A DNA stretch of 64,000 nt, taken from the sequence record MT932213.1. One strand, 5' to 3'. Origin of the DNA: Escherichia phage VEc74. Below, piece after piece: positions 2,765 through 63,696 of this stretch (its first letter is position 1; the number at the start of each line of letters is the position of its first letter). The position numbers and the translations under genes were made by a program. The notes beneath the pieces are model-generated. The model was given only the letters and a program-made list of their open reading frames with translations. It searched no databases and had not been told where the DNA came from.

Positions 2765-3373
2765 TTATTTATTACGTGAAAAAGACTGTTCTATCAATTC
2801 TGGACACTTTCGTTCTATCCATTTTCTAGCTTTTTGTGGGCTTATACCTATTATTTTAGCAGCTTTACTAACCCATCCAAATTTAGAATAATCGATTTTA
2901 ACTAATTCTTCGTAAATTTCATCAGTTAAAATCTTTTCATTAATATTTACCAGTAAATGATATAATTTATTATCATTAGCAATTTTAATGAATCTTTTAT
3001 AGTTTCCGCCTTTACTTAAGCCTAATGAAGTAATTGCAGATGATATAGTAGCCGAATTTAATAGTGCGTTTAAAATTTCTTCATCACTAACATTATAACG
3101 CTTTTTATTATTTTTAATATTTTTACCAGCAAAAGTATCAGTTTGCGAATGGCAGTTTGGACATAATAATCTTAAATTTGATTTAAGATGATTTTTGTTA
3201 TTTCCATCAATATGGTCTAATTGCAGAACAATATGCTTATTTTGCCATTTTGAAATTTTACAAATTGCACACTCATATGGAAAAATATTTTCTTTTATTA
3301 TTTTGTCTTTCAGCTTTCCTGTACTAAAATTTGGATGTTTTCCTTCAAAAATTTCAGCTAATTTAGTATCCAT
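2765..3373 (-). CDS. HNH-family homing endonuclease, about 202 aa
   Basis: Motif LQLDHIDGNNKNHLKSNLRLLCPNCH (His-Asn-His with CxxC) plus upstream CxxC (YECAICK); stop codon 7 nt from the 5' end of tRNA-Leu; start trimmed from the TTG of ORF 2765..3397 to ATG (MDTKL). Confidence 0.75.
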   Translation of the reverse strand: MDTKLAEIFEGKHPNFSTGKLKDKIIKENIFPYECAICKISKWQNKHIVLQLDHIDGNNKNHLKSNLRLLCPNCHSQTDTFAGKNIKNNKKRYNVSDEEILNALLNSATISSAITSLGLSKGGNYKRFIKIANDNKLYHLLVNINEKILTDEIYEELVKIDYSKFGWVSKAAKIIGISPQKARKWIERKCPELIEQSFSRNK

Positions 3374-3472
3374 AATATGATTCCCAATTATTAACAAAGG
3401 CTCTCAAATAAGAACCCTTGATGATAGAGGGTATTAATCAGTGCGGTATGAGTTAATAATAACAAATAATTC

Positions 3473-3997
3473 TTAAAGCAAATTAAACATTTTAACGGTC
3501 GGCAAAACAATTTCTTCTTCTATATAAGAGTATTTAACACTCTCAACTACACGCAAAAAATCATAATCATAATACTCAGAAGCATTACCTAAAATATTAG
3601 TAAGTCCTTCAAGCACTTTATTACCATTCACAAAGAATAAGTCAAATACACGTTCTTCGTCTTCTTCGGATTTATTACCAAGGTCAACTTCTATGTCAAA
3701 GACCTTTTTAATGAATTCTGGATAAAGTTGTTCTGAGAACAGTCCTTCAACCAAGTATTCATAAATAAAAAGCGATTGCTCGCTGAACAAGCCATTACCA
3801 CAATAACGTTCAGCTTTAGTACTAGAATGTCTGCTTTTAAACTTCTTTAAAAGATATTGGAACTGTAAGATTTCATGCTCTTCTACGCCAAACAGTGTTT
3901 TAGTTTTATAATTGTCACCATCATTTTCCCAGGTAGTGACATCAATTACGTAACCCTGCGGAATTGTAGTACCTAAACAAATATTCATTTTCACCAC
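3473..3997 (-). CDS. hypothetical protein, 174 aa
   Basis: Six-frame ORF, overlaps next ORF by 7 nt (operon-like); no motif recognised. Confidence 0.55.
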   Translation of the reverse strand: MVKMNICLGTTIPQGYVIDVTTWENDGDNYKTKTLFGVEEHEILQFQYLLKKFKSRHSSTKAERYCGNGLFSEQSLFIYEYLVEGLFSEQLYPEFIKKVFDIEVDLGNKSEEDEERVFDLFFVNGNKVLEGLTNILGNASEYYDYDFLRVVESVKYSYIEEEIVLPTVKMFNLL

Positions 3998-55119: not shown

Positions 55120-57177
55120 CTACATTTTGAACTTTTTAGACATTCCGTTGATGTTAACCAAAGAAGCTAAGATTTGAGAAACTTCGTTTTCCTCTTCTTT
55201 TGATTCTTCTACAAGGAATTGATTAAATCCAACCATTGGACGAACTTCACCAGTTTCCATTAGATGGTCGCCATCATATACTGATTCTTCTAATTGTTCA
55301 GAAGGAGGAACGATTGTACCTTCGATTAGATACTTGTTATAAGCCGTTTCTTTCATAAAGTACGTACTTACTTTATTAATCTTCAGTAAAATTCCACGAG
55401 GTAGAATAACTTCAGCTTCTGATGGAAATCCTGATAAATGACCTGGAACGATAACTTTGATTCGCTCAGCTCCTTTAATTACCATACCCACGCTAGTTTC
55501 AGCATCTTCATTGGCATATGTAGAATGACTACCCATATGCATCAAATGTTCTGCATCAACGGAACCTTCTCCTTCACCAGAAAATACTGCGCCGGAATCA
55601 TCTAGAGCCATATAGTTTTTACCATGCTCACCGAAGATATTTGGTTTAAGCGATGTCGATACGAAGTTCTTGAAATAGAACATTTTGTTTTCAATGTTAT
55701 GACGCAAAGTTTTAAAGGTAACTTCTTGTCCACGGTAAAGTGTAGTTCCTGGAGGAAGAACTGAACCTTTAGCGAATGCAGAATCCAACGTCTCGATGTG
55801 CTTAATAGCTCGTTCCATATATTCTTCACGGGTAGAATCTGGTTTACCCAAAAGGAACGAGTTCATTTCAACATATGAATCTGCACAATAATCTTCAATT
55901 ACATCAGACTCAGCCTGAGTCAGTCCTTTTGGAGTTACTTCAGTACTTGCATATTCATATGCCTGAGCAGCAGATTCATTAATCAATTTATAAATGCCAT
56001 TCATGACAAATTGAATAATAGCTGTCTTTTCATCTGGCGTAGCATTAGAACCTTTAACCAAATCATTGATAATTTTCTTAATAACATCAAAGCTATTAGA
56101 AATATTAATGTCAGCAAGATCGCTTAAAATTTTATCAGTTTTATAATCAAAGAATTCTTTATTCTTTAAATATTCTTGAGAACCTTGATATGTTATATCG
56201 CTTTGCAACTTGATAGATGGATCACGTAAACGTGCATGGGCTAATGCAATATGATTTCGGAAGTTTTCTAGTTCATAATCGCTAGATTTAAAACGAGAAG
56301 CACTTCTCATACCACCAATAGCTCCTTTGTTGAAGTTTGAACCAATCTGAATAACGCCAGAGTTCATTGGTCCTTCTGCTTTATATACCGGAACTTTAGA
56401 TTCAAACTCTTGATATTTCTTAGCAGCGAAGCTATCACCCTGAAGTGAAGCATCAACAGTAGAATATTGAGCTTGTGCTGCTAATCGACGACTAATTTTA
56501 GTTTTCTGAATAACAGCTTGATCCGTGCGCTTATCATTTTCTAAAGCAATAGAAGCAGCAACAGCGACAGCTTTAGGAACAGCATTACCTGTTTTAACGT
56601 CTACATAAACATCACCGACCTTTGATTCAACTTTTGTGAATAACTCAGTTGAAATAGGAGGTACACCTGGAATGTCTTCTAAATTGGCATTTTTACGGTA
56701 AACCATAATATATGCGTACTTTTTATCATAGTCCCAGATTTCCTTTAAAAGAACATATCGACCTGCTCCTTTAGTACGTACTAAACGGTCAGCAATAACT
56801 TGCATTTGACGAGCTGCGCCATTTGTTTTACTTTTTAGTACGCGGAATAAGCATGCGTCGATTTTATACTGCTTCATTGTTTGAAGAGCAGTATCAAAAA
56901 CCGCATTAATGACGCCAATTGGATTTCCACCCAAGTTTCTAAGCTTAACCAGCGATAATTTCTCGTTGACGCCTATCATTACGATATGCATCATTTTGTC
57001 GCCTGGCTTAACGTTTTTATTTGTATCACCGCCAGAGGTGTATGTACAAAATCTAAATCCAGGAAGCACACTTTCTTCGCCGGCTTGAATAGCAAAAATT
57101 TGTGGTATTTTATGCTTAGGATTTAAGTTAACAACCGGCGCCGAAGCGCCGTCAAATAATTCTGTAATAAGTTCCAT
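55120..57177 (-). CDS. Alt-family ADP-ribosyltransferase paralogue, 685 aa
   Basis: N-terminus MELITELFDGASAPVVNLNPKHKIPQIF parallels the adjacent copy; C-terminal R-S-ExE signature (YRGQE, FVSTSL, SEAEVILPRG). Confidence 0.85.
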   Translation of the reverse strand: MELITELFDGASAPVVNLNPKHKIPQIFAIQAGEESVLPGFRFCTYTSGGDTNKNVKPGDKMMHIVMIGVNEKLSLVKLRNLGGNPIGVINAVFDTALQTMKQYKIDACLFRVLKSKTNGAARQMQVIADRLVRTKGAGRYVLLKEIWDYDKKYAYIMVYRKNANLEDIPGVPPISTELFTKVESKVGDVYVDVKTGNAVPKAVAVAASIALENDKRTDQAVIQKTKISRRLAAQAQYSTVDASLQGDSFAAKKYQEFESKVPVYKAEGPMNSGVIQIGSNFNKGAIGGMRSASRFKSSDYELENFRNHIALAHARLRDPSIKLQSDITYQGSQEYLKNKEFFDYKTDKILSDLADINISNSFDVIKKIINDLVKGSNATPDEKTAIIQFVMNGIYKLINESAAQAYEYASTEVTPKGLTQAESDVIEDYCADSYVEMNSFLLGKPDSTREEYMERAIKHIETLDSAFAKGSVLPPGTTLYRGQEVTFKTLRHNIENKMFYFKNFVSTSLKPNIFGEHGKNYMALDDSGAVFSGEGEGSVDAEHLMHMGSHSTYANEDAETSVGMVIKGAERIKVIVPGHLSGFPSEAEVILPRGILLKINKVSTYFMKETAYNKYLIEGTIVPPSEQLEESVYDGDHLMETGEVRPMVGFNQFLVEESKEEENEVSQILASLVNINGMSKKFKM

Positions 57178-57180
57178 GAT

Positions 57181-59271
57181 TTATCCTTGAACGAACTTGT
57201 AAGGCATGTTTGTAATATCTATGCAAGACGCAATAATTCCAAGAGATGATTCTACTTTCTGTTTAACATTTGATGAAACAAATGATGCAAAGTCAACTCT
57301 ATCTTCTATATCACCTGTCATTGTAACCAATTCACCAGTTTCCATTAAATGGTCTCCGTCATAGATTACCGATTCAGTGAGTTCTTCTGTGGTCATAACT
57401 TCAGCTTGAATGAGTTTTGTATTATTAGACGTGGTTCCGTCATTATTAGAAGCATCAATTATTTTATTAACTTTGACCATCAATCCGCGCGGTAGAATAA
57501 CTTCAGCTTCTGTTGCTATTCCGAGACTTCCTGGATATACAACATTAACTTTATGAGCTCCATCAATTGCCCATCCTATTTGAACTTTAACGTATTCAGG
57601 ATTTTCTTTATACGCTCTTATTTCGTTTGGATTAATAGTTATTCCTTCTTCATTTTTATCAACTGTTAATTCATTACGAGCTTCTGGTTCTAAAAGACCA
57701 ATACCAGCATGTGTAATTCCAAAACGTCCAAAAATGATAGGAGTTAAAGAAGTAGATACAAAATTTCTGAAATAGAACACTTTATTTTTAACTAGTGCTT
57801 CGTATATAGGAGCAGTCATACTTTGAGCACGATAAACTGTAATGCCTTCCGGTATGCGGTCACCATTTTCAAAAGCTGAATCTAAATTATTTATAGCAGA
57901 TTCAATTTCTTTTTCACTCATTACATCATATCGTTCTGGATTGTAACGACCTAAAAGAAGATTATTAATGTCTGTATATCCTGAACCGCAATATTCTCTA
58001 ATGCCACGCTTTTGTGATGGAGTATATTTAGAACCATCACGGGCAATAGTAATATCAATCATTGGACCAGCACCAATTCCAGAAAAGCTATAAATCATTC
58101 GTTTGAGGAATTTAGTTTTTGCTGCATTCCAGGCATTTTTAGTTATTTCTCCCCAGACTTCATCTGGCTGCCCTTTACGAGTTTTATTATGTTTATCAAG
58201 CCAATTATCTTTATATTCTTCAAAGAGTTGATTAACAGCTGCTGCGTATTTCTCTAAACATTTTATTGAAGTAGTTGGTTCATTTTTAATCGCATTAAGA
58301 ATTACATCTTTAATTTTTTCAGAAACTTCATCAACCTCACTTTTTGAAAAGAATTTATATTCATAGTGAAGTTCATTTGCAGTTCCTTCAGCAATAATTT
58401 TTGCTGCCTTAGTTTTAGAAGCTAATGAATTAATTCCAAGCTTCATTTCTTCTGCTTCGGGAATTAAAGGAGCAGTAGCAGGTTTATTAAAATTAGCTGC
58501 GGTAGATTCATACTTCTGGAATAATTCACTTTCAAATCTAGAAGATTCTAATGATTGACTTTGCGCAATTGCTCTACGGGAAATTTTAACTTTAACGATT
58601 ACAGCTTGATCAGAACGTTTATCATTTTCTTGCGCAATAGATGCTGCAATTGCCTCATTTTTAGTTACTTGAGCTCCAGTATCTTTATTGATATAAACAT
58701 CACCGACCTTCGATTCAACTTTAGTAAAGAGTTCGGTACTAATTTCCGGAACTCCTGGAATGTCTTCTAGTGATACATTTTTGCGATGTATAAGAATATA
58801 TGCATACTTTTTATCATAATCCCAGAGTTCCTTAAGAAGGACGTATCTGCCACCTGAACGACTACGGATAAGTCTATCAGCAATAACTTGAATTTGTCGA
58901 GCTTGACCAGCAGTTTTAGACTTAAGAATACGGAGCATACAAGCATCAATTTTATATTGACGCATTGTTTGCATTGCAACAGTAAAAACTGAATTGATAT
59001 AATTAATTGGACTTGGACCAAGACCTTTCAATTTAGCAATTGAACCTTTAGCAGTTAATGTAAAAGGAACAATATGCATCATTTTATCGCCCATCTTTAA
59101 ATCACGATTAGTATCACCTCCAGATGTATAGGTACATAAACGAAAGCCTGGTTGTTCAATTGCATCATCAACGTGAACTGAAAAAATTTGCGGTATTTTC
59201 TTCTTTGGATTTAAGTTTGTAATCGGAAGAGTAGTATCTTCGTCAAATAATTCTGTAATGAGTTCCATCAT
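57181..59271 (-). CDS. alt: Alt ADP-ribosyltransferase (injected head protein), 696 aa
   Basis: N-terminus MELITELFDEDTTLPITNLNPKKKIPQIF; R-S-ExE signature (YRAQS, FVSTSL, ATEAEVILPRG); late promoter upstream. Confidence 0.85.
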   Translation of the reverse strand: MMELITELFDEDTTLPITNLNPKKKIPQIFSVHVDDAIEQPGFRLCTYTSGGDTNRDLKMGDKMMHIVPFTLTAKGSIAKLKGLGPSPINYINSVFTVAMQTMRQYKIDACMLRILKSKTAGQARQIQVIADRLIRSRSGGRYVLLKELWDYDKKYAYILIHRKNVSLEDIPGVPEISTELFTKVESKVGDVYINKDTGAQVTKNEAIAASIAQENDKRSDQAVIVKVKISRRAIAQSQSLESSRFESELFQKYESTAANFNKPATAPLIPEAEEMKLGINSLASKTKAAKIIAEGTANELHYEYKFFSKSEVDEVSEKIKDVILNAIKNEPTTSIKCLEKYAAAVNQLFEEYKDNWLDKHNKTRKGQPDEVWGEITKNAWNAAKTKFLKRMIYSFSGIGAGPMIDITIARDGSKYTPSQKRGIREYCGSGYTDINNLLLGRYNPERYDVMSEKEIESAINNLDSAFENGDRIPEGITVYRAQSMTAPIYEALVKNKVFYFRNFVSTSLTPIIFGRFGITHAGIGLLEPEARNELTVDKNEEGITINPNEIRAYKENPEYVKVQIGWAIDGAHKVNVVYPGSLGIATEAEVILPRGLMVKVNKIIDASNNDGTTSNNTKLIQAEVMTTEELTESVIYDGDHLMETGELVTMTGDIEDRVDFASFVSSNVKQKVESSLGIIASCIDITNMPYKFVQG

Positions 59272-59320: not shown

Positions 59321-59509
59321 TTAATAATCTATAGGTAAGAGAGTACGATATATTTCAAACTTTGGACCTTTTTCATAAGCATCAAAAGTTTCTGTGAATT
59401 TATTATAAGCATATGCATCGATAAATTCAATCATGATTTGTGATACAGAAGTAGAAACATCTCCACCTTCTTTTTGAGCCACGACAATTGTTTCTAAGTA
59501 AGCTTTCAT
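59321..59509 (-). CDS. hypothetical protein, 62 aa
   Basis: Six-frame ORF, ATGA overlap with the ligase stop. Confidence 0.5.
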   Translation of the reverse strand: MKAYLETIVVAQKEGGDVSTSVSQIMIEFIDAYAYNKFTETFDAYEKGPKFEIYRTLLPIDY

Positions 59510-60969
59510 AAACCAGTTACCTCATGAAAATCACCAAATACATCTTCGAACGTATTAGCTTTAGTTTTATCTTCGCGTAAACGAATCGCAATTGGAAGAA
59601 ATAATTTAACGTAATCAGTGCGGCCATCAGATTTTAACCAACCGTTGCATTCGCACTCTAGAATTTTTCCAATATAATAATTTTGGTTTTCCATAATGCG
59701 AGTACGGTCAAGTTCATGCGATTTTACACCGGCTTTATCTTTTAAGCCTGAACCAGCATTTACTTTAATTTTTCCACACTCTGACTCAAGAATAAATCCA
59801 CCTGCTTTAGTAGGGTCTTTACGGTGAGGATAAATTCCTACAATTTTTAAATCAACATCAATTACTTCTTTAAATTTATAGAGATTTTTTGAACGAGCAT
59901 TTTCCCATAATCCATCGATATTTTTGAGAATAATACCTTCAAGACCTTGGTCAATATACTTTTTATAAATTACCTTAGCTTCATCTAGGTTATTTACTAC
60001 CTGGTTTTCAATTAAAATTACTTTATCATATCCCGATGTCATTTGTTCTAGTTTAGAAAAACGTACATCATATTTCAAACGAAATGCTGGAAGACCGTAT
60101 ATTTCTACTAATGGAACATAATCCCAGACCTGAAACTTCATGCATTGTGCTTCTTTTTCTGAAATAGTTCCCTTTAAAGATTTATTGGCGATTCCATTAG
60201 AAGCAGTACGTGATTCAGCTACTTCAGCGAATTCTTTAACTTTACTGTTTTCAGGATGAGCATCAAAAAGAAAATCTAGGCCTTCTGGCTCCTTTTTAAC
60301 TTGCTCATGGTATACCAATTCGCCATCAATTAACACACCTTCTGGATGAATCTGGCGGGCTTCAGCGGTCATTTTGATTAACTCTTCTTTAAGAAGATCT
60401 AATCCTAGATATTCATTACCAGCTCGTGATAAAAGACGAACATCATCTAATTCATCGCCTCGGACTTCAGCAAAACACCGAGCTCCATCAGCTTTTAACT
60501 GCGCAAAAGCTGGAAACTTGATATTCTTACTAATGCCTTTTTCATCATAAGAACTTGCCAGCATTTGAGGTTGTTCAGGAATTAAACCTGGCCAAACTTT
60601 GTTTGCAATAGATACTGAAGCACCGCATTCAAGGTCTCGCATCATCACTCGACGCAAAACTTCAACATCATCTTTTTTACCATCGGTGATATATCCAGTT
60701 AATTCCTCAATTGCTGCATTTCCAGTCAATTTCCGAGTAGCTAATGTAAATTCAATGAAGTCAAGCATATCGGTAAGAGTCAACATTCCAAAACTCTGGG
60801 TAGCAATACCCGGTTTAGGCCATTTCTTGATATAATACTGTAACCCACGAGAATAAGTCAGACGATATACTCGTTTAAGCAATTCATTATCTTTATTCTT
60901 TTCAAGAATTGCTTGCTTCTGCTTAGTTGAACCAATAGATGCTATTTCGTTCAGAATTTTAAGAATCAT
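59506..60969 (-). CDS. 30: ATP-dependent DNA ligase (gp30), 487 aa
   Basis: Adenylation motif LKADGARC (KxDG); N-terminus MILKILNEIASIGSTKQKQAILEKNKDNELLKRVYRLTY. Confidence 0.95.
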   Translation of the reverse strand: MILKILNEIASIGSTKQKQAILEKNKDNELLKRVYRLTYSRGLQYYIKKWPKPGIATQSFGMLTLTDMLDFIEFTLATRKLTGNAAIEELTGYITDGKKDDVEVLRRVMMRDLECGASVSIANKVWPGLIPEQPQMLASSYDEKGISKNIKFPAFAQLKADGARCFAEVRGDELDDVRLLSRAGNEYLGLDLLKEELIKMTAEARQIHPEGVLIDGELVYHEQVKKEPEGLDFLFDAHPENSKVKEFAEVAESRTASNGIANKSLKGTISEKEAQCMKFQVWDYVPLVEIYGLPAFRLKYDVRFSKLEQMTSGYDKVILIENQVVNNLDEAKVIYKKYIDQGLEGIILKNIDGLWENARSKNLYKFKEVIDVDLKIVGIYPHRKDPTKAGGFILESECGKIKVNAGSGLKDKAGVKSHELDRTRIMENQNYYIGKILECECNGWLKSDGRTDYVKLFLPIAIRLREDKTKANTFEDVFGDFHEVTGL

Positions 60970-61235
60970 TGTTCATCCTTTAGAGTTTGGTTTACAGCTC
61001 TATTATAAATCAATTCATCATTAAGCTCAGTCAAAGACCTGTGGTACGTGGTTCTAACTTTATTTCCTTGCATCCAGTGCTTGACGTAAATGAAACCTTG
61101 CTCTACACATTTTTTAAAAATTCGTTCGTCTTTTTGAGCTCGGAATTCTGGATTGCATCTAAAAAATTGATTTACGTGACCGTAATCACGTGTAGTATTA
61201 CCTTCATTTTCATAAATAGTATGAACGACAAACAT
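60966..61235 (-). CDS. hypothetical protein, 89 aa
   Basis: Six-frame ORF, ATGA overlaps on both sides (operon). Confidence 0.55.
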   Translation of the reverse strand: MFVVHTIYENEGNTTRDYGHVNQFFRCNPEFRAQKDERIFKKCVEQGFIYVKHWMQGNKVRTTYHRSLTELNDELIYNRAVNQTLKDEQ

Positions 61236-62089
61236 TAGAATGCTCCTTGGAAAATATTATCACCACTACCACTAGTAAGTCTATTAAAATACCCTGCGTC
61301 GCCAGGCTTAATATAACTCCACGTATGGAATGGATGCATCTGATGTGAGTGTGTATAATATGGATGATATGGATTATAAGGATTAAATCCAGGAGTTCTC
61401 CAGGTAGTGTTCCAACGAAAAGAATCATTTTTAATCATCTTTTCAATTACATCTTTTATAGCTTTTTCACTATCAAAACTTTCTTTATTTTCCTTCGGTG
61501 AAAAAAGCTTATTCTCTACATCGTTCCATGTATAAACTCGCTGAGCGATTTTTGGAATACTGTCACGTTCCCCTCGAGCCATCCAATACACAGGAACACG
61601 TAATATTTCACTCGCATGATCGCAGTGGTGAGCGAGATCGTCAATATAACAAATTACGTTATATTTCTCTTTTGCCTTTTTGAACAACTCTTCTTTTGAA
61701 GAATCATGACCACACATCATTACTTCTGAGAAGGCACCAGGAAAAAGAGCATTCAAATTAAATTGGCGATTCAACAGAGCGTCAATAGAATCACCCAATG
61801 CTGTAACAGCTACAAAATTATAATCTTCTTTTAATTTGTTAATTACACACAGAGCATCTTTATATGGAGACAAGTAACGAATAAAATCTGATCGATTGTA
61901 TTTTTCAATTAACTTGACGCCAAGTTCTTCATCACAGTTAAAGAGTTTACCAGGAGAAATAAATTTCTCATCCTGGATCATTTTTAAAATATGTTCTAAC
62001 GGAAGATTATATTTCTGAGCAAAATAAGGAAGGCCTGATTGCCAGCTTAAACATACTCCATCAATATCAGTTAAAATAGTAGGCTTCAT
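61235..62089 (-). CDS. HAD-superfamily hydrolase-like protein, 284 aa
   Basis: N-terminal motif I LTDIDGV (DxDG[TV]) and a later YIDD motif. Confidence 0.6.
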   Translation of the reverse strand: MKPTILTDIDGVCLSWQSGLPYFAQKYNLPLEHILKMIQDEKFISPGKLFNCDEELGVKLIEKYNRSDFIRYLSPYKDALCVINKLKEDYNFVAVTALGDSIDALLNRQFNLNALFPGAFSEVMMCGHDSSKEELFKKAKEKYNVICYIDDLAHHCDHASEILRVPVYWMARGERDSIPKIAQRVYTWNDVENKLFSPKENKESFDSEKAIKDVIEKMIKNDSFRWNTTWRTPGFNPYNPYHPYYTHSHQMHPFHTWSYIKPGDAGYFNRLTSGSGDNIFQGAF

Positions 62090-62550
62090 AGAGAGTCTCT
62101 TAATAGGTTTAACACATCAATAAATTCAGCTTCGGTTAGTATTGTATCATCTTTTGTTAGACCACTAGCCATGCTGTGCTTCAAAACTTTTCCTTTCGAG
62201 GCTTGTAATGCATCACGAAAGCCCTTGTTTTGGATCGCTGCTTCAAAATATGCATTTGTGTATAATTCTTTCCACGCTGGGGAGTATCTTGAAAACGGAA
62301 CTCCAAGCCAGAAGAGGGTCCCACGGTCCTGAGCTCTAGCATAAGACCTTCCAGCTTGTTGGGCGGCAAGCCCGGATAACCCAAATATACGACGTTGTTG
62401 TTCAACATTTTTCACCTTACACCCTTGGAGGAATCCTTCGAGACCTCCAAATTGAATACCATCCATAACGAAAGGCCAATGGGCGAAATTACTTAATGCG
62501 CATGATGGCCATCTAAAATTGCTTCTAATCTCTAACTCAGACATTTTCAA
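62086..62550 (-). CDS. NADAR (YbiA/DUF1768)-like protein, 154 aa
   Basis: Motif block LSNFAHWPF...MDG...GLEGFLQ resembles the YbiA/NADAR FSNFxxWP signature as I recall it. Confidence 0.55.
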   Translation of the reverse strand: MKMSELEIRSNFRWPSCALSNFAHWPFVMDGIQFGGLEGFLQGCKVKNVEQQRRIFGLSGLAAQQAGRSYARAQDRGTLFWLGVPFSRYSPAWKELYTNAYFEAAIQNKGFRDALQASKGKVLKHSMASGLTKDDTILTEAEFIDVLNLLRDSL

Positions 62551-62743
62551 TGCTTATAATTTCAACATCAGCCCAATGACCATAGCAAGGAAGACGAAAT
62601 TCAACTGGCCAGTCACTGCCTTTTTCTAATATAATAGACTTAACTTGTGGTTCTTCGTGTTCATCGGTATACGGATTTTTATCTGTTACTTTATATGTGA
62701 CCTTAATGTACTGAATTCCAAAAATCTTATTAATTATATTCAT
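62537..62743 (-). CDS. hypothetical protein, 68 aa
   Basis: Six-frame ORF in overlapping operon. Confidence 0.45.
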   Translation of the reverse strand: MNIINKIFGIQYIKVTYKVTDKNPYTDEHEEPQVKSIILEKGSDWPVEFRLPCYGHWADVEIISIENV

Positions 62744-63224: not shown

Positions 63225-63241
63225 AATATTTTCCTCAGTAA

Positions 63242-63255
63242 GGGGCCGAAGCCCC
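63242..63255 (-). terminator. GC hairpin GGGGCTTCGGCCCC
   Basis: Perfect inverted repeat between ORFs. Confidence 0.45.
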
Positions 63256-63265
63256 TCATTTATTT

Positions 63266-63666: not shown

Positions 63667-63696
63667 TATAATATCATATCCTGTACCAAAGTAAAC
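63667..63696 (-). promoter_or_regulatory. T4-type early promoter with hairpin GGTACAGG...CCTGTACC
   Basis: Minus strand GTTTAC, about 17 nt, TATTAT, and an inverted repeat around the -10. Confidence 0.55.

Follow-up and report, generated by a model that had tools for sequence, protein, structure and literature searches.

The window analyzed here is a 64,000-nucleotide stretch of Escherichia phage VEc74 (sequence record MT932213.1). Around the gene under study, the DNA shares about 97% identity with many genomes of Tequatrovirus (T4-like) phages, and the order of genes on the minus strand is that of T4: 30.8, 30.7, 30.6, 30.5, 30.4, 30.3, 30.2, 30.1, 30, alt.1, alt and a second alt-like gene. 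All genes from 30.6 to alt.1 are on the same strand, each overlapping the next by 1-8 nucleotides, as would be expected if they were transcribed as a unit and their translation were coupled. The 30.3 homolog, hereafter adfN, thus sits upstream of the DNA ligase gene in a same-strand block of overlapping genes, as the earlier note on this DNA had proposed when it placed the gene in an early operon upstream of ligase. Table 1 lists the features discussed below.

Table 1. Features of the adfN region in the VEc74 window
Feature	Coordinates	Strand	Remarks
Second Alt-like ADP-ribosyltransferase	55120..57177	-	PF03496
Alt-like ADP-ribosyltransferase	57181..59271	-	PF03496
DNA ligase (gene 30)	59506..60969	-	30.2 and 30.1 homologs lie between adfN and ligase
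Gene 30.2 homolog	61235..62089	-	284 aa; start overlaps adfN stop (ATGA)
C-terminal tail of gp30.2	61235-61370	-	His/Pro/Tyr/Asn-rich
ORF containing adfN, as listed	62086..62550	-	154 aa if counted from TTG
adfN (gene 30.3) ortholog	62086..62544	-	152-aa NADAR-superfamily protein, very probably a DNA ADP-ribosylglycohydrolase
30.3' reading frame	62181-62408	-	75-aa ORF, +1 frame, wholly within adfN
Two extra codons, TTG AAA	62545..62550	-	inside end of 30.4-like ORF; T4 annotation starts at ATG
Gene 30.4 homolog	62537..62743	-	68 aa; immediately upstream of adfN
Perfect GC-rich hairpin	63241-63256	-	AGGGGC-UUCG-GCCCCU; between 30.7 and 30.6 homologs
Promoter-like site (candidate early promoter)	63668..63695	-	TTTACT, 16-nt spacer, TG, TATTAT; preceding G gives GTTTAC; upstream of 30.7

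The earlier note had taken the whole listed ORF as the gene. Direct reading shows that its third codon is an ATG, at 62544, from which translation would give a product of 152 amino acids (MSELEIRSNF...LLRDSL). We regard this ATG as the likely start, rather than the TTG at 62550, because the annotation of T4 gene 30.3 begins at the corresponding codon and gives a protein of equal length; the two codons before it are probably not translated within the adfN product. At this ATG, adfN shares 8 nucleotides with the end of the upstream 30.4-like ORF, stop codon included: ATGTCTGA. The reading frame is clearly a real gene, far beyond chance, since its product matches Pfam family PF08010 (Phage_30_3) with E=7.4e-70 and a score of 233.6 bits (cutoff 36) along the entire profile (positions 1-138 of 138), and tblastn finds the gene in 1510 phage records, 143 of them at 99% identity or more. 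The gene of the earlier note therefore stands, with its start moved two codons downstream, and the conserved block quoted there is present in full: in ATG numbering, the motifs are L17-SNFAHWPF-25, D28-G29 and G34-LEGF-38.

The window gene is the ortholog of T4 30.3/adfN in a Tequatrovirus phage. Its product is identical to T4 gp30.3 (NP_049816; PF08010; PMC11825919) at 150 of 152 positions (98.7%), differing only by Q22H and I125M, and the two genes share the locus 30.4-30.3-30.2-30.1-30 with its overlapping start and stop codons. Fully identical proteins occur in other Tequatrovirus phages, for example vB_EcoM_Shinka, in which the product is labeled 'NADAR domain containing protein'. The protein falls into phrog_652 in PHROGs; no NCBIfam family covers gp30.3. 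More distant members of the family are found in other settings. In Ralstonia phage RSP15 (Ackermannviridae), outside Straboviridae, a gp30.3-family NADAR that is 31% identical lies within a tRNA gene cluster (2995-3513), and the KVP40 homolog of 30.3 adjoins genes 47 and 46, away from ligase. Evidently, the 30.3-family gene has moved between genomic contexts.

Does this protein belong to the NADAR superfamily? The earlier note had called it YbiA-like and had proposed a Pfam NADAR match as a check. Read literally, that check fails: the window protein does not match PF08719 (NADAR, DUF1768) even at E<=10, and PF08010 is the only Pfam family matched. A phmmer search of PDB sequences with the single window protein likewise gave only a chance match (3rjz, E=0.61). 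However, a PF08719 match defines the Pfam family and not the superfamily, so its absence is no bar to superfamily membership, and we reject it as a refutation in view of clear profile-profile and structural evidence. Among 61 diverse gp30.3 homologs, 8 match PF08719 individually (best E=1.5e-7). When the profile of these 61 homologs was run against PDB sequences with hmmsearch, the best match, at E=0.0086, was to E. coli YbiA (2b3w), with SNFA...DG...E...K as the aligned stretch, and hhalign paired the 61-homolog alignment with E. coli YbiA over 91 columns at a probability of 93.8% and E=1.7e-7. An AlphaFold2 model built with the same alignment is confident throughout (pLDDT 93, pTM 0.88); we used this version, since prediction from the single sequence was unusable (pLDDT 39). 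A Foldseek search of the model against the PDB returned 2b3w, 8bau and 8bat as its top three structures, and everything else at E>2. The window protein is thus unambiguously a member of the NADAR superfamily, with the YbiA fold. A plain Pfam scan misses this kinship because the phage clade has a Pfam family of its own (PF08010); in the gp30.3 case, the link requires profile-profile or structural comparison.

The active-site residues agree with this assignment. Conservation, scored on the alignment of 61 homologs, shows invariant columns that include S18, N19, F20, E36, G37, F38, Q40 and H123, with K43 nearly invariant. In the hhalign alignment, E36 is paired with YbiA E48 and K43 with YbiA K55. 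The catalytic Glu/Lys equivalents are E43 in PnNADAR, E88/K95 in the E. coli C7 NADAR and E36/K43 in AdfN(T4), and both E36 and K43 are present in the window protein. H123, which directly follows strand 120-122 in the AlphaFold2 model, pairs with YbiA E125 if one more column is added to the hhalign alignment. In phage NADARs, a histidine is known to replace the acidic residue of the last strand (Schuller et al. 2023, PMC11543638). The YbiA-like label therefore holds for the superfamily and not in the narrow sense, as the gp30.3 clade has a His where the YbiA family has a Glu. E. coli YbiA (PDB 2b3w; PF08719) is only about 20% identical to the window protein and is a housekeeping N-glycosidase encoded among rhlE, dinG and ybiB, whereas the phage gene very probably serves in counter-defense. 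DarG1-type (BC4488-family) NADARs, such as those of Geobacter lovleyi (PDB 8bat) and E. coli C7 (PMC11543638), are about 15% identical; those associated with DarT1 have an N-terminal extension and a catalytic Asp, while the window protein lacks the extension and has His instead. It further differs from these antitoxins in its genomic setting: no DarT1 toxin gene lies next to adfN, whose neighbors are the 30.4 and 30.2 homologs, so that adfN is an orphan gene.

NADARs act as the antitoxins of DarTG1 by hydrolyzing guanine-ADP-ribose in DNA (Schuller et al., Mol Cell 2023, PMC11543638). T4 gp30.3 was named AdfN in 2024-25 and described as a DNA ADP-ribosylglycohydrolase specific for guanine, both necessary for DarTG1 resistance and sufficient to confer it (PMC11825919, PMC11125620). 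The DarTG1 resistance of T-even phages was mapped to 30.3, renamed adfN on this occasion (Johannesman et al., Nat Commun 2025, PMC11825919). In the same work, deletion of adfN from T4 or T2 abolished plaquing on DarTG1 hosts, and RB69 was rescued by ectopic adfN(T4) and only partially by its E36A or K43A variants. Purified wild-type AdfN lowered the ADP-ribose signal on DarT1-modified DNA, whereas the E36A protein did not (PMC11825919). Independently, a transposon screen (HIDEN-SEQ; preprint 10.1101/2025.11.20.689424) found that phages with adfN insertions drop out on DarTG1 hosts only, so that the gene is indispensable there but can be spared on K-12. A study from the Suskiewicz laboratory, which calls phage NADARs 'gp30.3 proteins' (Toxins 2024, PMC11125620), reported that the T4 phage NADAR hydrolyzes guanosine-ADP-ribose and not thymidine-ADP-ribose in vitro. 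The construct is given there as 'E. coli T4 phage NADAR (gp30.3; residues 1-208)' (PMC11125620, Methods 4.2), whereas T4 gp30.3 has 152 residues; it may be a longer homolog or include tag residues, which matters when the in vitro result is cited for T4 itself.

We consider it very likely that the window gene, as an ortholog of T4 adfN, encodes a NADAR-fold hydrolase that removes guanine-ADP-ribose from phage DNA and thereby defeats DarTG1. The DarT1 toxin of the host would ADP-ribosylate guanine bases in replicating phage DNA, and the small, stand-alone hydrolase, expressed early, would cleave the ribosyl-guanine bond. E36 and K43 would bind and position ADP-ribose, with H123 in the last strand taking the place of the acidic residue used by other NADARs. 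Once ADP-ribose is removed from the DNA, replication could proceed and abortive infection by DarTG1 would fail. The suggestion of the earlier note that a NADAR counters DarT-type defense has thus been borne out experimentally for a protein 98.7% identical to this one, and both the fold and the active-site residues agree here. By the same token, the counter-defense finding is already known, because the gene is the ortholog of an experimentally characterized T4 anti-defense gene published in 2024-25.

A function in which DNA is a secondary substrate has to be weighed against this reading. The enzyme might act mainly on riboflavin-pathway intermediates or soluble derivatives of ADP-ribose, whether it works as an N-glycosidase of the YbiA type or degrades NAD-derived immune signals. 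Such a role would fit the annotation of E. coli YbiA as an N-glycosidase and the behavior of AdfN(T4), which, in contrast to the DarG1-type antitoxins, does not neutralize DarT1 in uninfected cells: the T4 phage NADAR gave no rescue of uninfected E. coli (PMC11125620). Yet genetics ties adfN specifically to DarTG1 resistance, catalytic point mutations weaken the rescue, and the purified protein strips ADP-ribose from DarT1-modified DNA. Moreover, the gp30.3 clade carries the His for Glu substitution and was reported to be closest to DarT1-associated NADARs and not to the housekeeping YbiA group (PMC11825919). We therefore hold a mainly soluble substrate to be very improbable, and retain guanine-ADP-ribose in phage DNA as the target.

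Whether the window allele is active is a separate matter, as RB69 shows that decayed alleles persist in this group of phages. The RB69 gene (NP_861905) is orthologous and lies at the same locus; in contrast to the window allele, it carries an insertion of one base that puts its last 15 residues out of frame. This frameshift, which we confirmed in the RB69 sequence, removes the last helix and cripples the allele, and RB69 is sensitive to DarTG1 (PMC11825919). An intact C-terminal helix is needed for full activity (PMC11825919). The VEc74 frame lacks the insertion and is open through residue 152, and the AlphaFold2 model places a helix at 138-151. Inactivation might also come from Q22H, I125M or a defect that went undetected. 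Q22H sits within the conserved N-terminal SNFAxWPF block and may affect activity. Against this, positions 22 and 125 are not counted among the invariant columns or those close to it, and at 125 most family members have Met. Besides, the frame is of full length, all invariant residues are kept, proteins identical to this one occur in other, independently isolated phages, and the structural model is confident over its entire length. An inactive allele is barely credible on these grounds. With E36, K43, H123 and the C-terminal helix in common with AdfN(T4) and the two substitutions as the sole differences, we infer that the window allele would act like AdfN(T4).

The earlier note had raised self-protection as a second possible role, on the view that the phage carries three or more ADP-ribosyltransferases. 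Two of them are indeed present in the window: two full-length Alt paralogs, 41% identical to each other, stand in tandem 3-7 kb downstream of adfN on the same strand. However, searches with T4 ModA, ModB and Alt (phmmer with Alt) and with Pfam found these two Alt paralogs only, and no ModA or ModB homolog, so that a third enzyme is not found within the window. T4 itself has one alt gene and the short remnants alt.-1 and alt.-2, which its annotation attributes to an old duplication, and RB3-type phages also carry two Alt-like genes. Under the self-protection hypothesis, the NADAR would remove ADP-ribose misplaced on phage or host molecules by the phage's own transferases, that is, the two Alt paralogs together with ModA and ModB encoded elsewhere in the genome. 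The proximity of the two alt-like genes would favor it; on the other hand, the T4 annotation lists proteins as the targets of Alt and ModB. These enzymes modify arginine side chains, a linkage other than guanine-ADP-ribose. Furthermore, adfN is dispensable on hosts free of DarTG1, on which T4 and T2 deletion mutants could be obtained and titered, although the phage still carries its transferase genes (PMC11825919; HIDEN-SEQ preprint 10.1101/2025.11.20.689424), and hydrolysis by the T4 NADAR was shown only for guanine-linked ADP-ribose (PMC11125620). We thus find self-protection without support and highly unlikely, and DarTG1 remains the preferred target.

As to expression, a generic sigma-70 promoter scan of 59-64 kb shows no enrichment, with 23 sites found against 18.6 expected from shuffled sequences. 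Because the scan does no better than shuffles, we take the timing from T4 transcriptomics. In T4, 30.3 has an early transcript and a late-accumulating protein according to the classification in PMC9697503 (Table S2), which also puts 30.4-30.8, 30.2, 30.1 and 30 in the early transcript class. The term 'early' used in the earlier note is thus supported by way of T4. In the window, a consensus-matching site upstream of 30.7 is a candidate early promoter for the block running from 30.7 to 30. The hairpin between the 30.7 and 30.6 homologs is not followed by a T-run on the coding strand, and therefore looks more like an element of RNA stability or processing than an intrinsic terminator.

A second reading frame, which corresponds to T4 30.3' ('internal translation, in a different reading frame'), is nested in adfN. 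Its open stretch of 76 codons is present in the window as well as in T4, Shinka, RZ (Gaprivervirus) and CLB_P2 (Dhakavirus), although elsewhere the frame contains 7-8 stops. The T4 proteomics table gives gp30.3' the protein class 'early' and no transcript class (PMC9697503 Table S2). We do not retain 30.3' as a conserved gene: the frame is open in genera close to T4, broken in RB69 and not preserved in distant homologs.

According to the published work, AdfN(T4) rescues non-T-even phages weakly; its full effect is obtained only in T-even infection and seems to need another phage factor. This weak rescue, together with the lack of rescue in uninfected cells, indicates that hydrolase activity alone does not fully explain the mechanism in vivo. 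We considered the product of gene 30.2, whose start overlaps the adfN stop, as a possible partner. The protein carries an N-terminal DIDGV motif like that of HAD phosphatases, recognized by eye and not by a profile, and other phage records annotate 30.2 as 'putative phosphatase' or 'HAD-like hydrolase'. Database searches gave no Pfam match, no PDB sequence match and, in NCBIfam, only a sub-threshold chance match. Residues 1-240 differ from T4 at five positions, and the C-terminal tail shows indels and substitutions relative to T4 (284 against 278 amino acids overall). The 30.3-30.2 pair occurs together in T4, Shinka, RB69, Gaprivervirus, Dhakavirus and Zedzedvirus, and within 500 bp in Slopekvirus, so that 30.2 adjoins or lies near 30.3 in Tequatrovirus, Mosigvirus, Gaprivervirus, Dhakavirus, Zedzedvirus and Slopekvirus. 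No 30.2 homolog was found within 3 kb of 30.3 in Phi1, KVP40, PS49 or RSP15. In the text of the HIDEN-SEQ preprint (10.1101/2025.11.20.689424), adfN is the sole gene named for the DarTG1 screen and 30.2 is never mentioned. As the adjacency is only partly conserved, we set gp30.2 aside as an obligatory AdfN partner. The idea that this protein, translationally coupled to adfN, is the T-even factor needed by AdfN(T4) is kept for the same reason as an unlikely one.

These results allow a function to be assigned to a gene that is mostly labeled 'hypothetical protein' in deposited T4-like genomes. They raise no questions beyond the two that published work already poses, on the T-even co-factor and on what the His substitution does. 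Judging from its adfN allele, Escherichia phage VEc74 is predicted to resist DarTG1. It would be an example of a lytic phage that uses an orphan homolog of a bacterial antitoxin to undo, enzymatically, a defense based on DNA modification.
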